A DNA stretch of 64,000 nt from positions 132,143-196,142 of the forward strand of contig CAYZYP010000001.1 in NCBI GenBank assembly GCA_964482695.1, in the 5' to 3' direction. The translations under genes and the position numbers were made by a program. A model generated the notes under the pieces. The model searched no databases and was not told the origin of the DNA. It saw only the letters and a list, made by a program, of their open reading frames with translations. Numbering within the stretch: the stretch's first letter is position 1; each line of letters opens with the position of its first letter. Positions 18,894 to 53,058 of the stretch are shown here, piece by piece. Source of the stretch: an uncultured Gammaproteobacteria bacterium (lineage in GTDB: Bacteria; Patescibacteriota; Patescibacteriia; Magasanikbacterales; GWA2-37-8).

Positions 18894-19018
18894 CCAGCGA
18901 ACACATACATCTTTTTAGGAAAAAAAGCAGTTATCCGTTTGCCTTTTTGCCTACGTTTACACTTGGCAAAAAGTTTTCCGACCACTTTTTTTCCTAAAAA
19001 GATGTATGTGTTCGCTGG
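18894..19018. repeat. Intergenic palindromic element, copy 1 (conserved core shared with 52911-53024)
   Basis: About 34-bp perfect outer inverted repeat (CCAGCGAACACATACATCTTTTTAGGAAAAAAA / rc) enclosing core AAAGCAGTTATCCGTTTGCCTTTTTGCC ... GGCAAAAAGTTTTCCGACCACTTTTTT. Confidence 0.7.
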
Positions 19019-24601: not shown

Positions 24602-24735
24602 CTGTCATCCCGAAGGAGCGTCACAGCGACTGAGGGATCTCTGTCTCAAATCAACAACGGTTTTATTTACGCAGTGAAGTGAGAGAGTACCCTTTATTGT
24701 GACAGAGATTCCTCGCCTTTGGCTCGGAATGACAA
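24602..24735. repeat. ORF-less inverted-repeat element (MITE-like) of the TTGTCATYCYGAG family
   Basis: Left arm CTGTCATCCCGAAGGAGCG...GAGGGATCTCTGTCTC; right arm GTGACAGAGATTCCTCGCC...GGCTCGGAATGACAA (imperfect reverse complement). Confidence 0.6.
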
Positions 24736-25843: not shown

Positions 25844-26220
25844 TTGTCATCCCGAGCCGCAGCGAGGGATCTCTGTCTCAATTATTTATGATTAAAAGGA
25901 GGAACCATAATTATTATGTTTATATAATGGCCAGTGTAAGTTTTATAATGTATATAGGTGTTACTAATAATTTAATTAGAAGAGCAGAAGAGCACAAACA
26001 AGAAATATTAGATGGTTTTAGTAAAAAATATAAAACAAAAAAATTAGTTTATTATGAATGGTTTATTAATATCAATGATGCCATTAGAAGAGAAAAAGAA
26101 TTAAAAGGTTGGCGTAGGGAAAAGAAGATAAATTTAATTAGAAGCGCTAATCCTCGGTGGGAAGATTTGTACAAAGAGTTGATTGAGACAGAGATCCCTC
26201 GCTGCGGCTCGGGATGACAG
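25844..26220. mobile_element. Compact GIY-YIG element bounded by perfect 35-bp terminal inverted repeats
   Basis: Left end TTGTCATCCCGAGCCGCAGCGAGGGATCTCTGTCTC (25844-25879); its exact reverse complement at 26185-26220; the enclosed ORF ends inside the right repeat. Confidence 0.6.
25888..26217 (+). CDS. GIY-YIG nuclease-superfamily protein
   Basis: YYVYIMAS...MYIGVTNNLIRRAEEHK matches the GIY-YIG core (Y-VYIL ... YIG-T-NL-RR--EH). Confidence 0.8.
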   Translation: MIKRRNHNYYVYIMASVSFIMYIGVTNNLIRRAEEHKQEILDGFSKKYKTKKLVYYEWFININDAIRREKELKGWRREKKINLIRSANPRWEDLYKELIETEIPRCGSG

Positions 26221-30548: not shown

Positions 30549-30566
30549 AATTCATATAAAAAGAAC

Positions 30567-30600
30567 GAACCCCGGGCGGCGATAGGTCCGTTCCGGGGTT
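30567..30600 (-). terminator. Rho-independent terminator for minus-strand mini-gene
   Basis: On minus strand: AACCCCGG-loop-CCGGGGTT followed by CGUUCUUUUUAU; overlaps stop codon of 30601-30768. Confidence 0.6.
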
Positions 30601-30768
30601 TCATAATAATCCCTCCTCTTTGTGGGCGTCGACGATCAACCGGATCGCCGACCGAAAAAAGATCACTACGTAAGCGCCAAGCAAAAGCCATGGCATGGCT
30701 CGCTCGGCGCCGACCACGCTACAGCAGACAAAGTCTGCCACAGCTTGAAAAAAGAAAAACCAATACAT
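30601..30768 (-). CDS. 55-aa hydrophobic peptide, GC-rich codon usage
   Basis: ATG at 30768 preceded by AGGAGG with 5-nt spacer; MYWFFFFQAVADFVCCSVVGAER...; G/C-ending codons unlike neighbours. Confidence 0.5.
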   Translation of the reverse strand: MYWFFFFQAVADFVCCSVVGAERAMPWLLLGAYVVIFFRSAIRLIVDAHKEEGLL

Positions 30769-30790
30769 GTTGCCTCCTTGTCTGATGTTT

Positions 30791-30819
30791 TGTATATCAA
30801 GAATAATAAGTTGTGTCAA
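30791..30819 (-). promoter_or_regulatory. Sigma70-like promoter of the mini-gene
   Basis: Minus strand TTGACA (30814-30819) - 17 nt - TATACA (30791-30796). Confidence 0.4.
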
Positions 30820-34346: not shown

Positions 34347-34438
34347 TTGTCATTTCGAGCGAAGCGAGAAATCTCTGTCTCAATTACTGATTTTAAATAT
34401 ATCGAGACAGAGATCCCTCACTGCGGTTCGGGATGACA
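34347..34438. repeat. ORF-less inverted-repeat element (MITE-like), same family as GIY-YIG element ends
   Basis: TTGTCATTTCGAGCGAAGCGAGAAATCTCTGTCTC ... GAGACAGAGATCCCTCACTGCGGTTCGGGATGACA with only a 17-nt spacer. Confidence 0.65.
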
Positions 34439-35692: not shown

Positions 35693-36858
35693 ATTTTTAA
35701 AGTCTGTTTGGTAATATCTTGCCAATTATAATTTTTTTCCACTAAAACTTTATTTTCTTCACCAGCTTGTTCTAAGAGAGCTGGTTTTTTTATTAGTTCA
35801 ATAATTTTTTCAGCCAAAGAAGCAATACTGGCGTTATTAAACCAAAATTGATCGTCGGTAATAATTTCTTTGTGTTCGGAGATGTCGGAAACCAAGACCG
35901 GGCGAGCATGGGACATGGCTTGCAAGACAGTTATTGGTAGCCCCTCGTTTTCTGAAGGATGGACAAACAAAGCAGTATTAGCATAAAGTTCTTCTAACGT
36001 TTGGCCGCTTTGCCAGTCGGTAAAAATAATACTATTATCGCCCTTGGCGATATTTTTTAGGTCATTTAAATAATTATCGGTAAAATTAGAACCGCCAACA
36101 ATAACTAATTTGTAGTCTTGTAAAAGTTGGGGACATTGTTGACGAACAAATTGCCAAGCGGTGAGTAAATAATGCGCTCCTTTGTGCTTAACAAGTCGAG
36201 AGACCATGAGTAAGTATTTGTTTGATTGCAAATTCCATTTCTCTTCTATGACCCCTCCTACAGTCCCCCTTTTTAAGGGGAGGATAGAAAAGTTTGGTGT
36301 TCTAACACCGTTTGGAATGTAGGTGGTTTGTTTTTTGTATTCATTTAAATAATAGCTTTGCAATGTTTTGGAAACAACAATTGTTTGGTGAGCAAATTTT
36401 ATAGCTGTCCATTCGCCTAGGCGCAACATTAAGCGCGCCAGCCAGTTCCATTTTTGATGATAACGATCTAAACAATGAGAAGTGGTAATTACTTTGGCGC
36501 TTGGCAAAAAAATACGAGGGATAAAACTTAACAAAGACGGACCAACACCATGATAATGAATAATATCCGGTTTTTGAAATAAGGCGTGGATGGTAGAAGT
36601 TAAAGTGTGGGTGATAGCGTCTAAATGTTTGGTGCGCAAGCTAGGAGTATAAATTATTTTTATACCATTAATTTTAGTAATATTTTTTGGGCTATACCAT
36701 TTACGAGCGTAAACCAAAATATCATGGCCGTTTTTTGCCAATTCTGTTGCCAGCTCTTCTACGTGGCGCTCTATGCCGCCATAAATAGCCGGGATTCCTT
36801 TTTGTCCAAGCATGATAATTTTCATGTTTTTTGTGCTTAAAACAGGCAACAATAGCAC
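35629..36858 (-). CDS. Glycosyltransferase family 4 carrying an in-frame GC-rich hairpin insertion
   Basis: GT4 motifs (NEGLPITVLQAMSHARPVLVSDISEHKEII); insertion encodes ...LPLKRGTVGGVIE... at 36250-36290. Confidence 0.75.
   Translation of the reverse strand: MLLLPVLSTKNMKIIMLGQKGIPAIYGGIERHVEELATELAKNGHDILVYARKWYSPKNITKINGIKIIYTPSLRTKHLDAITHTLTSTIHALFQKPDIIHYHGVGPSLLSFIPRIFLPSAKVITTSHCLDRYHQKWNWLARLMLRLGEWTAIKFAHQTIVVSKTLQSYYLNEYKKQTTYIPNGVRTPNFSILPLKRGTVGGVIEEKWNLQSNKYLLMVSRLVKHKGAHYLLTAWQFVRQQCPQLLQDYKLVIVGGSNFTDNYLNDLKNIAKGDNSIIFTDWQSGQTLEELYANTALFVHPSENEGLPITVLQAMSHARPVLVSDISEHKEIITDDQFWFNNASIASLAEKIIELIKKPALLEQAGEENKVLVEKNYNWQDITKQTLKIYNFTTSSYTSSNFLKYPSTL
36250..36290. repeat. GC-rich hairpin mini-element (CCCCTTtttAAGGGGAGGATAG), in-frame in GT4 gene
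   Basis: 6-bp stem CCCCTT/AAGGGG with 3-nt loop; the same motif occurs at 39041-39062 and 38356-38372. Confidence 0.5.
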
Positions 36859-36870
36859 ATCCTAGCCTTT

Positions 36871-36915
36871 TTGTCAAGGGTGGGGTTGACAAGTTTGGCT
36901 AAAATATGCTATTAT
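36871..36915 (+). promoter_or_regulatory. Sigma70-like promoter with overlapping operator-like inverted repeat
   Basis: TTGTCAAgggtggggTTGACAA inverted repeat; TTGACA (36886-36891) - 18 nt - TATTAT (36910-36915). Confidence 0.5.
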
Positions 36916-36971
36916 TCGCCACAAGTTTTCTATCTCTAACCGTTTTTTCTTGGAAAGGAAGAGGAAAAAGA

Positions 36972-37175
36972 ATGTCGAGACCGACGACAAGAGAACGAGA
37001 CCACCTCGATCTGGAACTGGCTCAGCTAGAAGATCTCCGGGCAAATGATTTTACTTTGCCTCCAGATCTTGATCTGGACGAAGTGCTCGGCAAAGAAGGT
37101 TTCAAAGGATTTACCTTAGGACAGGCTGGGTTGCTCACCTGCAAGCCCAAGCCGTCGCGGCGGCTGCGTTCCTAG
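36972..37175 (+). CDS. 67-aa hypothetical protein, foreign (GC-rich) codon usage
   Basis: GAGGA SD 6 nt before ATG; MSRPTTRERDHLDLELAQLEDL...; CTG/GAC/CTC codons dominate. Confidence 0.4.
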   Translation: MSRPTTRERDHLDLELAQLEDLRANDFTLPPDLDLDEVLGKEGFKGFTLGQAGLLTCKPKPSRRLRS

Positions 37176-37187
37176 GTGGATCCAAAA

Positions 37188-37252
37188 CCCATACCGCTCG
37201 TGCGCTTCTTGGCCCTTTCGAGGGCTGACTTGCGTCGGGCGGTATGGGGTTG
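37188..37252 (+). other. Long GC-rich nested hairpin (terminator or structured RNA)
   Basis: 10-bp outer stem CCCATACCGC/GCGGTATGGG enclosing GCCCTttcgAGGGC; followed by UUGUUCGUUCU. Confidence 0.35.
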
Positions 37253-37492
37253 TTCGTTCTGCCTCGCATGCCGTAGCTTTGCGAAGCGAAACGAAGGCAT
37301 GTGGATAACTCTGTTTGACTATGCTGTAACAGTATGATAGTTTAAGAATAATATATTAAGACTTTATGAATTTTAATTTACATACAACCCCAACCTGGAC
37401 AAAGCGTACTATTTTGGTAAAACGCTATTTTGGTTTTTGGGGTGAGGTGTGTAAAATTAAAAAATAAAAAGTTTACAAAATAAATAAACACA

Positions 37493-37530
37493 ATCACCCT
37501 GAAGGCCAATAGAGCGTCAGGGTGATTTTT
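37493..37530. terminator. Rho-independent terminator (bidirectional)
   Basis: ATCACCCTGA-14 nt loop-TCAGGGTGAT + TTTTT; A/T-rich tract also on the opposite side. Confidence 0.65.
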
Positions 37531-37602
37531 AAACCACAAATTTTTACACGAATTAACACAAATATGGAATTTAATTCGTGATTAGTGTAAATTTGTGGTT
37601 CG
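37531..37602. promoter_or_regulatory. Long imperfect palindrome (operator / cruciform candidate)
   Basis: AACCACAAATTT...GAATTAA / TTAATTC...AAATTTGTGGTT arms (12 + 7 bp matches) around an 11-nt centre. Confidence 0.35.
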
Positions 37603-37719
37603 TTCTTTACAAAAAAGTGTTTAGCCAGAGGAAAAGATTTTAAAAAATGTTTTTCTTTGGCTGGGCAGTTGAGTCTAGCATTTCAGGTCGGCACAAAGCC
37701 GGCCATCAAGGAGCGAATC

Positions 37720-37893
37720 ATGGAAACCACCGAAAACACCCCCCAGACCACCAACCAGTCACCTCGCCCTGTATTGGACGCTCACCACGAGCGGGTGATA
37801 CTTCTCTTCGGAAAGAAGAAAGTGTCCCACCAGCTCAAGGTGGATCCGTACACAGGTGAGGTGCTGGAGGTTCCGGCCTTTCTTCTGCGCTGA
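37720..37893 (+). CDS. 57-aa hypothetical protein, GC-rich codon usage
   Basis: AAGGAG SD 6 nt before ATG; METTENTPQTTNQSPRPVLDAHHERVILLFGKKKVSHQLKVDPYTGEVLEV... Confidence 0.4.
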   Translation: METTENTPQTTNQSPRPVLDAHHERVILLFGKKKVSHQLKVDPYTGEVLEVPAFLLR

Positions 37894-38059
37894 GCAGAGG
37901 AAGCCGGCCACGTGGTCTGGGCAACGGCGCGCAAAACATCGTGCGCCGTCCCATTAGAGAATATAATTAGATTGTTAGTTTATATTCTGTAATGGCGCCA
38001 GGAACTTTGTATGTTCGTGGCAAAAAATAATAAAAATTGCCGAGAAAGGAGAAAAAAAC

Positions 38060-38212
38060 TTGGCAAAAGAGAAATGCAAAGTCTGCCCGCATTGCGGGCA
38101 ACAGTTCAAAAAGAAGCATGGGAACAGGTGCCCAGTTTGCGGCCGATGTCGTTATGACAAAACCGGTTGCAAAAACGGAGTTTCGGCTTCAAGCTCAAAA
38201 AAGGAGAAGTAA
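38060..38212 (+). CDS. 50-aa Cys-rich zinc-ribbon peptide (TTG start)
   Basis: AGGAG 8 nt upstream of TTG; translation LAKEKCKVCPHCGQQFKKKHGNRCPVCGRCRYDKTGCKNG... (CxxCxxC-x11-CxxCxxC); stop immediately before a 12-bp hairpin terminator. Confidence 0.45.
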   Translation: MAKEKCKVCPHCGQQFKKKHGNRCPVCGRCRYDKTGCKNGVSASSSKKEK

Positions 38213-38217
38213 AAAAT

Positions 38218-38246
38218 CCACCCCGACACCAAACGTGTCGGGGTGG
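38218..38246. terminator. Hairpin terminator
   Basis: CCACCCCGACAC-caaac-GTGTCGGGGTGG; A6 tract upstream gives a U-tract on the minus strand. Confidence 0.6.
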
Positions 38247-38337
38247 TACGAACTTCCTTTATATGATATTTTGTAAAAACAAAGTAATTTTTTGGTTTTA
38301 AAAATGTTTAAAATATGGTATAATAATTTCGTTTTAG

Positions 38338-38400
38338 ACTCCTCCTTAATCCCCCCCCCTCTGTAAGGGGAGAAGAGTGTATTCCTAATGCTGTACTCTT
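38338..38400. repeat. GC-rich hairpin mini-element in 5'-UTR of membrane-protein gene
   Basis: CCCCT-ctgta-AGGGGAG plus AAGAGT...ACTCTT stem, downstream of extended -10 TGgTATAAT (38316-38324). Confidence 0.45.
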
Positions 38401-38417
38401 ATTAAGAGAAGAAAAAT

Positions 38418-39389
38418 ATGTATTTATTTATAGCCATACTCGGTTACATTTTTCTCGCTGTTGTCAACATTTTTGATAAATTTATCCTTACCAAAGCGAT
38501 CCCCAAGCCAATTGTGGTTGTTTTTTATTCCACGGCTTTGATATTTCCAATATTTTTATTAGTACCTTTTGGCGCCGGTTATCTGGGAAATTGGCTATCT
38601 TATGTAATTGCCGCTGTGGGGGGTGTATTTTTCGGCCTTGCTTTGTGGGCCATGTTTATTGGTTTTCAAAAAAGCGAAATAAGCCACGCCGGGCCGCTTG
38701 TTGGCGCCACAACGCCATTTTTTGTTTTATTTTTAAGCCAGCTATTTTTAAAAGAACAATTAACAAGTTATCAGATCGTTGGCATTATTATCTTAATAAT
38801 TGGCTCGTTGATTATCTCTGTTGAAAAAAGCAAAGATCATAATGGCTGGCATAGCGGCATGTTGTGGTTAATTCTCGCCGGTTTATTATATGCCGTTTCT
38901 CATGTTGCTTCTAAATATATTTATGACATTTATGGTTTTTATAGCGGCCTGGTTTGGACGCGTGGGTTTATGGGATTGTTTGGGATACTACTATTAGTTT
39001 GGCCAGAGGTGAGACGAGAAATATTTAAGATAAAAAATCCTCCCCTTACTAAGGGGAGGATAGGGAGGGGTCTGGCAGAAGAGACCTCCCCCTCCCCCCT
39101 CCTTGCTAAGGAGGGGACGACGAAAATCAGGCAATTCATCCTTGTTTTCTCTAGCCGTCTATTAGGCGTCATTGGTACGCTTTTAATTCAGTACGCTATT
39201 GCCATTGGCAGTGTAACAATTGTCAACGCGTTAGTTGGTGTTCAGTTTGCTTTTTTAATTATTATAGTAGCTTTGCTTTCAAAATTTTTGCCTAAACTAT
39301 TTAAAGAAGACTATAATAAAGGGGAAATGGCGTGGGAATTGGTGGCAGTAGTAGTTATCGCGGTTGGGCTGACAATGGTTATAACATAG
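38418..39389 (+). CDS. EamA/DMT-like membrane protein carrying an in-frame 28-aa hairpin-element insertion
   Basis: Ten hydrophobic helices; the low-complexity insert KNPPLTKGRIGRGLAEETSPSPLLAKEGTT is encoded by the 39038-39122 element. Confidence 0.65.
   Translation: MYLFIAILGYIFLAVVNIFDKFILTKAIPKPIVVVFYSTALIFPIFLLVPFGAGYLGNWLSYVIAAVGGVFFGLALWAMFIGFQKSEISHAGPLVGATTPFFVLFLSQLFLKEQLTSYQIVGIIILIIGSLIISVEKSKDHNGWHSGMLWLILAGLLYAVSHVASKYIYDIYGFYSGLVWTRGFMGLFGILLLVWPEVRREIFKIKNPPLTKGRIGRGLAEETSPSPLLAKEGTTKIRQFILVFSSRLLGVIGTLLIQYAIAIGSVTIVNALVGVQFAFLIIIVALLSKFLPKLFKEDYNKGEMAWELVAVVVIAVGLTMVIT
39038..39122. repeat. Composite GC-rich hairpin element (three CCCCT...AGGGG hairpins), in-frame in coding sequence
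   Basis: TCCCCTTActAAGGGGAGGATAG; GGGGTCT...AGACCTCCCC; CCCCTCCTTgcTAAGGAGGGG. Confidence 0.55.
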
Positions 39390-52750: not shown

Positions 52751-52910
52751 TCATAGGTTTTGCTAATGCTGGCAGGGTTAACCTGTTTAGCACCGTAAGG
52801 ACAGGACATGTCCTGTCCTACAACCAACAAGCACCTCTCGCGCAAGCGGGGGGTGTTTTGTTTTTTTGCTTTGACAGTTAGAGGATTTTAGTTTAAAATA
52901 ACATCAAGTA

Positions 52911-53024
52911 TTAGTGGCAAATACATATTTTTTTATAAAAAAGCAGTTATCCGTTTGCCTTTTTGCCTTTCGGCAAAAAGTTTTCCGACTACTTTTTTAT
53001 AAAAAAATATGTATTTGCCACTAA
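52911..53024. repeat. Intergenic palindromic element, copy 2
   Basis: 32-bp perfect outer inverted repeat TTAGTGGCAAATACATATTTTTTTATAAAAAA / rc enclosing the same core as copy 1 with a shorter inner loop (GCCTTTTTGCC-tttc-GGCAAAAAG). Confidence 0.7.
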
Positions 53025-53058
53025 TATAAAGCGTAAATTTTTTTTATTAATATTTTTT

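Follow-up and report, generated by a model that had tools for sequence, protein, structure and literature searches.

A small, probably horizontally acquired islet of putative GC-rich mini-genes at a glycosyltransferase-transporter junction in a groundwater CPR bacterium

The window, by which we mean the whole stretch of 64,000 nucleotides that was analysed, is a groundwater CPR (Magasanikbacteria-like) contig with a GC content of 36.1% (200-nt windows: mean 0.361, sd 0.058). Between the second of its two GT4 genes (glycosyltransferases) and a transporter gene of the EamA family we found an islet of about 1.4 kb (36860-38270). Small horizontally acquired islets are an ordinary kind of feature, and this one shows some unusual details. 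The explanation that we favour, with about an even chance of being right, is that foreign small-gene cassettes gathered in a hypervariable intergenic hotspot and formed a lineage-specific mosaic. In that case the native AT-rich backbone, which comprises a divergent promoter, then a DnaA box with a promoter, a 33-aa ORF and a terminator, would have been interrupted, and then trailed, by three GC-rich foreign blocks, each of them a putative miniature expression unit with a ribosome-binding site, an ORF of 50-67 aa and one or more very stable stem-loops on the 3' or 5' side. The blocks would most likely come from higher-GC organisms or elements that use Shine-Dalgarno (SD) initiation and were probably fixed via illegitimate recombination at a site where sister lineages have folD or other inserts. 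Acquisition by insertion was demonstrated for block 1, and composition suggests the same for blocks 2 and 3.

The islet is real DNA and not an assembly artefact, because the same sequence was present in five contigs from separate assemblies (by ENA, Logan and JGI) of different samples; it was identical in L001, L002, L003 and L040, and in L039 for the right half only. Its two GC peaks, 0.59 at 37121-37320 and 0.595 at 37741-37940, are the top two values in the 64 kb. The GC3 of ORF1, ORF2 and ORF3 was 0.52, 0.70 and 0.54, compared with 0.31 in native genes (sd 0.07, equal-length windows), and the z scores of their synonymous-codon likelihood relative to native genes were -5.0, -6.1 and -4.1. 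The sliding-window comparison with native genes thus found the islet atypical in both GC and codons, with the GC maxima of the window and codons 4-6 standard deviations off native, which bears out an earlier note, made from the letters of this DNA, that had described a GC-rich segment with foreign codon usage. The three small ORFs (67, 57 and 50 aa), the promoter, the hairpins and the palindrome were also present where that note had placed them, and each structure that it had named (a GC hairpin, a terminator, a palindrome and a 12-bp hairpin) was recovered.

The left end of the islet is a divergent promoter region (36849..36915, both strands) with two TTGACA -35 boxes back to back. The plus-strand promoter, TTGACA-18-TATTAT at 36886-36915, faces ORF1 and scored 11/12, and the minus-strand promoter within the same region, TTGACA-17-TATTGT, serves the GT4 gene. 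The inverted repeat TTGTCAAgggtggggTTGACAA that had been reported over the promoter does exist as sequence, but it is really the two back-to-back -35 boxes. In L017, the closest relative (73% GT4 identity), the promoter region was 75% conserved and its plus-strand hexamers were degenerate (TTGCTA / GATTTT).

Block 1 (36945..37293, +) is an indel of about 350 bp that consists of ORF1 and its 3' hairpins. ORF1 (36972-37175, +) encodes an orphan of 67 aa with an acidic, helical N-terminus and a basic C-terminus, and its AF2 model reached a pLDDT of 69. Three consecutive RNA hairpins lie on the plus strand in 37110..37304: the first (37110-37180) spans the ORF1 stop codon, the second (37183-37252) is a nested GC stem of -44 kcal/mol with GTTCGTTCT directly after it, and the third is at 37264-37304. 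Because of G·U pairs, the block 1 hairpins were more stable on the plus than on the minus strand (-44.2 vs -33.6 and -31.6 vs -25.3 kcal/mol), and the fold of 37100-37310 had a z of -5.6 against shuffles. We also observed that the block starts at its own ribosome-binding site and ends in hairpins. Global alignment showed that block 1 is missing from L017, in which the two flanks were 75% and 91% conserved with about 30 bp between them; the more distant relative L005 likewise had no counterpart of it. Neither a TIR nor a TSD was visible at the block boundaries.

Behind block 1 comes an AT-rich spacer (37296..37530, +), which is native backbone conserved in relatives. It contains a perfect DnaA box (37300-37308) conserved in relatives and a promoter TTGACT-17-TAGTTT (37315-37344, +). 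Further on are an ORF of 33 aa (37366-37467, +), whose codon usage is native, and a terminator predicted to be strong (37492-37527, +). Identity to L017 was 91% over 37296-37339, the start of the 33-aa ORF was conserved as well, and the backbone segment CATGTGGATAA was found in L005 too. The mosaic look with host-like AT-rich spacers, to which the earlier note had pointed, was genuine. Next to the spacer is an AT-rich near-perfect palindrome (37532..37600) with CGTTCTTTAC directly after it. The motif GTTCGTTCT recurs 3' of hairpins at 37252, 37598 and 30562(-), and short GC-rich palindromes CCCCTTnnnnAAGGGGAGG cluster around the islet locus only, some of them inside the flanking genes. An origin of replication was considered and rejected despite the perfect conserved box, since GC skew was positive throughout the 64 kb and the DnaA boxes were unclustered.

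The 5' leader of ORF2 (37615..37704, +) has two hairpins, one of 18 bp that includes five G·U pairs (37615-37670) and a small GC-rich one (37686-37704); the larger leader hairpin (37612-37672) folded at -27.4 kcal/mol on the plus strand vs -8.5 on the minus strand. ORF2 (37720-37893, +, 57 aa) follows an AAGGAG at 37708-37713 with a spacing of 6 nt. Its GC per codon position was 0.64/0.36/0.69, and single-sequence AF2 predicted a three-stranded beta meander over residues 21-57 with a pLDDT of 81-91. A branched rod-like RNA structure of about 180 nt (37742-37921, +) lies over most of ORF2, and its fold (37735-37925) had -101.6 kcal/mol and a z of -8.5; it is followed by two further hairpins, first a GC one (37924-37949, +) and then an AT one (37951-37995, +). 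The whole region 37610-38010(+) reached a z of -11.3 against shuffles, and the window-wide structure scan gave a mean z of -3.6 in the islet vs -0.66 (sd 2.0) elsewhere. Block 2 also has five overlapping ORFs of at least 39 aa in different frames.

ORF3 (38060-38212, +, 50 aa) starts with TTG, 8 nt behind an AAGGAG at 38046-38051. Its product reads as a basic zinc ribbon with a net charge of +11 and two CPxCG knuckles, CPHCG (residues 9-13) and CPVCG (residues 24-28), in line with the pattern of such ribbons, in which two CxxC or CPxCG knuckles about 10-20 residues apart make up a four-Cys zinc site; no specific family could be assigned, and the resemblance to the FmdE, S27ae, L37ae and rubrerythrin ribbons was generic and sub-threshold. 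After ORF3 is a perfect 12-bp GC hairpin (38218..38246). Its A-run lies upstream and its T-run belongs to the minus-strand side, which disqualifies it as a canonical plus-strand terminator for ORF3, although it had been taken for a terminator before. No promoter was evident for ORF2 or ORF3, and a convincing minus-strand promoter-terminator unit was not present in the islet.

The translation signals set the islet apart as well. None of the 40 native genes had an SD 5-mer upstream, and ORF2 and ORF3 both had AAGGAG. Apart from ORF2 and ORF3, the 64 kb had just one more free-standing ORF led by an SD, likewise GC-rich, at 30768(-); two SD-led ORFs on one strand were seen in 3% of local shuffles. 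A good SD had been claimed for each islet ORF, and this holds for ORF2 and ORF3 but not for ORF1, which has a mere purine tract containing GAGG. The anti-SD motif is reported missing in a Parcubacteria subgroup (PMC9297842). If the present host also lacks SD pairing, the islet ORFs may go untranslated. The third SD-led ORF belongs to a second islet (30550-30800), where it encodes a hydrophobic peptide (hydropathy 2.05) of 55 aa with toxin-like character (30601-30768(-)).

Searches of 5.8 billion proteins, of phage, plasmid and IMG/VR collections, and of Pfam, PHROG, PADLOC, NCBIfam and PDB sequences returned no credible homologue of any ORF, and a word-indexed search of the 5.8 G proteins with ORF1-3 returned only the queries themselves. 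HMMER against 1.84 G representatives matched ORF2 to just two Ig-like repeat proteins, and we distrusted these matches because their scores sum over 5-6 repeats; a single repeat gave 25 bits and 12/36 identities. Foldseek found no match for the ORF2 model in the PDB. The HMM and structure searches thus named no specific family or fold, and the three peptides are as unrecognisable as the earlier note had held, the generic zinc-ribbon similarity of ORF3 being the one likeness. At the gathering threshold Rfam reported only two tRNAs in the whole window, both outside the islet, and up to E 10 it assigned no family to the islet, where the best sub-threshold model was a terminator-like PyrR with 30 bits vs a threshold of 54. 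We also looked for 6S RNA, retron msd, omega-RNA and riboswitches; no model matched, and reverse transcriptase and TnpB were absent. The collections searched yielded neither a donor sequence nor a homologue of an ORF or a block, so foreign origin is argued entirely from composition and signals.

Comparison with relatives indicated how variable this junction is. Thirteen relatives had the order GT4-folD-EamA with the islet absent. In the window folD and any remnant of it were missing, and tblastn with the FolD proteins of four relatives found no folD pseudogene in the AT-rich spacers. Almost all lineages examined had a different content here (folD, palindromes, other GC-rich patches). In L005 the same junction was occupied by a series of SD-led mini-ORFs with a GC of 0.64-0.71 that is not homologous to the islet, and AT-rich spacers and terminators lay between these ORFs. 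Only the promoter and DnaA-box segments of the two islets aligned, and weakly so, and their ORFs were unrelated, so we rejected homology between them. A strictly empty site was found for block 1 in L017, and elsewhere folD or other inserts took its place. None of the relatives examined had the same segment at this locus, and none of the peptides matched a housekeeping protein. The proposal of a horizontally acquired cassette is therefore supported by atypical composition, codons and SD, by orphan ORFs and by absence from relatives, with block 1 empty in L017; its donor was not found in the collections searched.

The islet could not be assigned to a mobile module, as had been suggested. Pfam families were reviewed for all genes called between roughly 10 kb before and 11 kb after the islet, and no integrase or transposase was among them within ~8-10 kb; terminal repeats and target duplications were absent. 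We found no second copy of the GC-rich blocks in the 64-kb window or in 36 related loci. With neither a TIR nor a TSD visible at the block 1 boundaries either, the locus does not look like a MITE or small non-autonomous transposon, which would show TIR, TSD and multiple copies in the genome. Horizontal transfer and genomic islands are documented in groundwater Patescibacteria, and the islet resembles their ORFan islets (PMC12455944) in atypical GC and codons, orphans, presence/absence differences and a lineage-variable junction. It differs from them in being only 1.4 kb long, in the absence of an integrase, a tRNA and repeat boundaries, in its division into three GC-rich blocks with native sequence in between, and in having SD on islet ORFs and none on the genome's own genes.

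A phage moron is an autonomous promoter-gene-terminator unit between resident genes within a prophage, often with deviant GC. The compact promoter/RBS-ORF-stem-loop unit of ORF1, its deviant composition, its place between unrelated genes and the absence of block 1 in L017 are all moron-like, but there is no prophage, phage gene nearby, or PHROG or phage-genome similarity, and the promoters of ORF2 and ORF3 are not evident. Type I toxin-antitoxin systems combine a small hydrophobic membrane toxin with an overlapping or adjacent antisense RNA. They share with the islet small ORFs, heavily folded mRNAs and strong SD, and the 55-aa peptide of the second islet is hydrophobic; ORF1-3 in contrast are hydrophilic (GRAVY -0.5 to -1.2, maximum 19-residue hydropathy ≤0.47), with no recognisable antisense RNA gene and no family match. 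Nothing points to the toxin or regulator function that the earlier note had floated for the ORFs.

If the foreign-cassette explanation is right, the plus strand would be transcribed, ORF1 from the TTGACA-18-TATTAT promoter, and ORF1-3 may be translated in this host. The stem-loops would act as terminators and also as barriers against RNA decay. The products would be small accessory or selfish proteins without a role in glycan synthesis, and the ORF3 zinc ribbon would probably bind nucleic acid.

Few mRNAs would be folded as extremely as the ORF2 region, and a non-coding RNA fits this structure equally well. We weighed the alternative that the GC-rich blocks are novel structured non-coding RNA genes, with the ORFs as mere by-products and the RNAs as regulators, decoys or processing substrates, and we consider it unlikely overall. 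GC-rich intergenic regions of AT-rich genomes are a classic hiding place for structured RNAs, and the islet is similar to these in its long intergenic region, its GC far above background, its very negative fold z scores (the region around ORF2 and the 180-nt rod above all) and its strand specificity by G·U pairs, which is strongest in the ORF2 leader hairpin. ORFs of 50-80 codons arise easily in sequence of 57-60% GC, those found here have no protein homologues, and block 2 is open in several frames. In addition, a candidate hammerhead ribozyme of type III was detected in the analogous L005 islet, with 35.1 bits (E 2.8e-5) where the gathering score is 48.5. A hammerhead has the conserved core CUGAUGA ... 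GAAA, three helices and a UH cleavage site, but this core pattern was absent from the window and Rfam gave no hammerhead match up to E 10. The literature searched yielded nothing specific on islets of this kind, nor on CPR hammerheads. Against the RNA alternative also stand the complete lack of Rfam matches even at E = 10 and the fact that no relative conserves the blocks, with block 1 absent from L017. Coding is favoured by AAGGAG at the correct start-codon distance, seen in the 64 kb at islet ORFs only, by the codon-position periodicity and confident beta fold of ORF2 and by the CPxCG knuckles of ORF3; these SD-led ORFs, with their periodicity and zinc-ribbon motif, overlap the RNA structures.

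Equally doubtful is the alternative that the islet is non-functional debris left after the loss of folD, a mixture of foreign fragments and palindromes that is unexpressed, unselected and heading for deletion. All the ORFs are orphans, the junction varies from lineage to lineage, the CCCCTTnnnnAAGGGGAGG palindromes gather only around this locus and even enter the flanking genes, and the SD signals are possibly unreadable in this host; moreover, the variant contig L039 (JGI, short) departs from the window inside the islet, at 37627 within the ORF2 leader hairpin. However, 1.4 kb of junk would be costly in a streamlined CPR genome, and the ORFs, the SD sites and the near-consensus promoter are intact, the promoter being better than its L017 counterpart. 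The strand-specific, G·U-containing helices suggest selection at the RNA level, and an identical sequence recurred in several samples.

We give a low probability, below that of either alternative above, to the idea that the GT4-EamA junction of this CPR clade is a dedicated capture site for GC-rich, hairpin-armoured, SD-led micro-genes in organisms whose own genes lack SD. It draws on the unrelated arrays in two lineages and on the candidate hammerhead ribozyme in one of them.

Less probable still is an array of site-specific cassettes, of the integron or CALIN type or of a new analogous type, in which promoterless cassettes would have been captured serially behind a resident promoter. As in integron arrays and CALINs, there are small, mostly orphan ORFs with imperfect hairpins behind one strong promoter, the ORF-hairpin pairing occurs three times, and the composition is unlike the host. 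Block 1 opens at a ribosome-binding site and closes in hairpins, GTTCGTTCT stands 3' of three hairpins, and the junction is filled by a parallel array in L005. An attC site is an imperfect hairpin between two cores, R'' (RYYYAAC) and R' (GTTRRRY), at a distance of 50-150 nt, and a CALIN can do without IntI, a tyrosine-recombinase integrase. When both strands of 36800-38450 were scanned with regular expressions, each had a single isolated core and neither had a pair; an integrase or other recombinase was absent within ~8-10 kb, the hairpins were mutually non-homologous, and the shared short motif was a post-hoc observation. Finally, an assembly chimera, in which GC-rich reads of another organism were joined into a CPR contig, might be read from the abrupt change of composition and from L039, in which a fragment of an unrelated aaRS gene is attached to the islet's right half, but it is hardly credible, as ENA, Logan and JGI assemblies of different runs (contigs of 5-35 kb and longer) had the same arrangement and the blocks sit between conserved native segments.

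The finding alone opens no new mechanism. A capture site, if true, would mean either a cassette system of a new kind that works without an integrase, or genes adapted to translation in a different cell, which could be the episymbiont's bacterial host or its mobile elements. CPR bacteria have tiny, streamlined genomes, and the non-native DNA that they retain is therefore informative on gene exchange with their neighbours. The islet is a clean and compact example, in which three independent signals (GC, codon usage and SD) separate foreign from native mini-genes and a sister lineage has another set at this junction. Expressed ORFs would enlarge the poorly known pool of CPR small proteins; without expression, the locus would be a record of the entry of foreign DNA into CPR genomes and of its persistence there. 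The SD contrast may also serve as a marker of recent imports in SD-less lineages.

Quantitative analysis of composition showed that the GC content of the window was 36.1% (200-nt windows, mean 0.361, sd 0.058), and the top two GC peaks of all 64 kb, 0.59 (37121-37320) and 0.595 (37741-37940), were both in the islet (36860-38270), with stretches of about 30% GC between them. The three small ORFs described in the earlier note were all found: ORF1 (67 aa, 36972-37175 +), ORF2 (57 aa, 37720-37893 +) and ORF3 (50 aa, 38060-38212 +, TTG start). Their GC3 was 0.52, 0.70 and 0.54, respectively, against 0.31 in native genes (n = 47), and values as high occurred in <1% of equal-length native windows; in synonymous-codon likelihood they fell short of native windows by 5.0, 6.1 and 4.1 sd. 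These comparisons bore out the GC-rich islet with foreign codon usage. A 33-aa ORF (MNFNLHTTPTW..., 37366-37467) in the AT-rich spacer (37296-37530) resembled native genes in its codon usage, had a promoter and a strong terminator to itself, and could be a genuine native small gene.

Shine-Dalgarno (SD) signals gave a second contrast. An SD 5-mer was within reach of the start codon in 0 of 40 native genes (window 1-64000), and only three free-standing ORFs in all 64 kb had AGGAG or GGAGG at 4-10 nt, which were ORF2, ORF3 and a 55-aa hydrophobic ORF of a second islet at 30550-30800 (-). The islet ORFs are thus equipped with a translation signal that goes unused in the host's own genes. A good SD had been claimed for each ORF, which holds for ORF2 and ORF3 but not for ORF1, whose ribosome-binding site is weak and purine-rich. 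The anti-SD motif is missing in a subgroup of Parcubacteria according to a survey (PMC9297842), and Magasanikbacteria fall within Parcubacteria 1, a group named there (PMC9297842). SD-based initiation appears not to be used by the window's organism, which fits that report. The SD contrast is evidence for foreign origin that is independent of composition, and the SD signals show that the islet ORFs were shaped as genes somewhere. The second islet is found immediately downstream of another EamA gene. With a GC content of 0.52-0.55, it has an AAGGAGG SD, is densely packed with hairpins (z -5.5) and carries a terminator whose end is GGTTCGTTCT; its ORF (30601-30768 (-)) has foreign codon usage and one TM-like segment, and the whole resembles a type I toxin gene.

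The TTGACA-18-TATTAT promoter and every hairpin previously named in the islet were found. The promoter does have the inverted repeat, but this is really two back-to-back -35 boxes, for the GT4 gene and ORF1, and the supposed terminator after ORF3 has its 12-bp hairpin but the T-run is on the minus-strand side. Compared with dinucleotide shuffles, z was -11.3 for 37610-38010, -5.6 for 37100-37310 and -8.5 for a 190-nt branched rod over ORF2, and a whole-window fold scan gave a mean z of -3.6 in the islet vs -0.66 elsewhere. The islet helices are much more stable on the + strand because G·U pairs are used (37612-37672, -27.4 kcal/mol on + vs -8.5 on -; 37180-37256, -44.2 vs -33.6 kcal/mol). We also saw, post hoc, that the 9-mer GTTCGTTCT has four sites (37252, 37598, 30562(-), 600(-)), each directly 3' of a hairpin closing AACC/GGTT, and that the 13-mer GGTTGTTCGTTCT is common to 37248 and 604(-), the latter inside a GT9 gene.

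Such extreme structure, the G·U-using helices that are far stabler on the + strand and the overlap of several open frames within block 2 (the GC-rich part with ORF2) would suit novel structured RNAs in which the ORFs are incidental, but no Rfam family matches the islet, and we consider this reading improbable. Coding is favoured by the SD-start geometry, the GC of ORF2 by codon position (0.64/0.36/0.69), ORF3's pair of CPxCG zinc knuckles and its net charge of +11, and a confident beta meander at ORF2 residues 21-57 (single-sequence AlphaFold). The two readings are compatible if the transcripts are heavily folded mRNAs. It is likewise rather unlikely that the islet is unexpressed debris.

A search of 5.8 billion proteins with ORF1-3 returned only self-matches. 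Full HMMER on 1.84 billion representatives added just two Ig-like repeat proteins for ORF2, which were rejected as homologues, their scores being sums over 5-6 repeats. Viral contigs, phage and plasmid genomes, Pfam, PHROGs, PADLOC, NCBIfam, PDB sequences and Foldseek gave no specific match for the islet ORFs. The peptides were thus as unrecognisable to protein, HMM-family and structure searches as first described, and by these searches ORF1-3 are all orphans.

The locus was then compared with 35 others that surround relatives of its GT4 gene; these relatives are Magasanikbacteria/Patescibacteria MAGs. Two convergent GT4 glycosyltransferase genes lie left of the islet, and an EamA-family transporter, a glycoside-hydrolase-like gene and sugar isomerase genes lie to the right. 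In 13 relatives (57-63% GT4 identity), the order was GT4-GT4-folD-EamA-hydrolase, composition was ordinary and the islet was absent; folD carriers at this junction (window 36858-38418) include L006, L008, L009, L011, L020 and L021. No folD was found in the 64-kb window, and no remnant in the islet. The sequence of the closest relative, L017 (73% identity), extends just 351 bp upstream of its GT4 gene, but within these it keeps the divergent promoter at 75% and, about 30 bp further, a match to window 37296-37339 (91%), after which comes the start of the 33-aa ORF (MNNFIHAIRPIW...); this start is possibly kept in L005 as well. The window's approximately 350 bp between these parts, with the ribosome-binding site, ORF1 and hairpins, is missing from L017, which means that block 1 (36945-37293) is a discrete indel; insertion in the window's lineage is more parsimonious, because L005 also lacks block 1. 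In L005 (62% identity, 45% GC), the GT4 and EamA genes are 2 kb apart with a mosaic of their own between them: three small ORFs with SD sites and 64-71% GC, AT-rich spacers with terminators, and a conserved CATGTGGATAA box, which is also kept in L017. The L005 and window ORFs are unrelated to each other; two lineages have independently accumulated GC-rich, SD-led mini-ORFs at the junction. The L005 islet also holds a candidate type III hammerhead ribozyme (L005:4739-4803 (-)) with all core nucleotides (CUGAUGA, GAAA, UC cleavage site) and perfect stems I-III (35.1 bits, E 2.8e-5, below the Rfam gathering score of 48.5).

Other relatives had palindromes, a GC-rich patch or different genes at the junction, which is therefore hypervariable in this clade. 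Differing inserts lie upstream of the same GT4 gene in L033 (4410-4660 and 4700-4950) and L017 (240-350), including a 250-nt GC-rich patch of L033 without an Rfam match, and long AT-rich palindromes of TCCGAAT/ATTCGGA units occur in both. At this junction, yet another insert of foreign composition is an 881-aa ORF of about 65% GC directly upstream of the GT4 gene (L013:3122-5767, L032:2122-4767), in a Patescibacteria contig of 50% GC. Thus the empty-site comparison found folD or other inserts in relatives, and L017 without block 1.

Other elements were also found. Short GC-rich palindromes CCCCTTnnnnAAGGGGAGG (36265-36283, 38352-38373, 39039-39059, 39096-39116; 9 pattern matches vs 0.28 expected) are confined to the surroundings of this locus; one is inserted in frame into the GT4 gene, in its inter-domain linker, and two inside the EamA gene encode PPLTKGRIGRG.../SPLLAKEG. 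A perfect DnaA box (TTATCCACA on the minus strand, 37300-37308; also 9372, 46410 and 48479) lies just upstream of the conserved promoter of the 33-aa ORF, and a replication origin there was rejected by GC skew. Intergenic repeats comprise a palindromic element of about 110 bp (18902-19010 and 52918-53017, 85-88% identical), whose copy at about 52900-53050 has the strongest structure of the whole window (z -25), and a REP-like GC-rich palindrome GAGATCCCTCGCTGCGGCTCGGGATGACA (24696-24733, 26182-26219, 34401-34438), with similar elements in L005.

No recombinase was found within about 8-10 kb of the islet. The boundaries of block 1 showed neither terminal repeats nor target duplications, and none of the blocks recurred elsewhere in the window or in the related loci. 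The mobile module proposed in the earlier note was not borne out, nor was a toxin/regulator module. Capture by an integron-like system is very unlikely, given the lack of a recombinase within that distance and of attC-like cores. Assembly artefact can practically be dismissed, since ENA, Logan and JGI assemblies of different runs agree exactly on the islet sequence, which is therefore not a chimera. Identical copies of the flanking EamA gene were also found on PRJNA292723 groundwater metagenome contigs and in Logan and JGI assemblies. A 1.9-kb JGI contig, L039 (Ga0103682_10071504), equals the window from 37627 rightwards, minus 46 bp in EamA (38741-38786), while its left part (1-293) encodes an aminoacyl-tRNA synthetase C-terminus (anticodon-binding domain) with a His-rich tail. 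Its breakpoint is inside the 5' hairpin of block 2, and it is either a real rearrangement/structural variant or a chimera at the shared hairpin.

Foreign origin and mosaic structure are well supported. The leading explanation, which we hold at about even odds, is that foreign small-gene cassettes from higher-GC, SD-using donors were imported into a recombination-prone intergenic hotspot, where folD would have been lost. The cassettes would be transcribed on the + strand, with stable stem-loops that may protect or terminate the transcripts; their products would be small proteins of an accessory or selfish kind, among them a putative basic zinc ribbon. Small horizontally acquired islets are already known for Patescibacteria (PMC12455944), and the islet is of this kind; its unusual features are the SD contrast, the dense RNA structure and a parallel array carried by a sister lineage.
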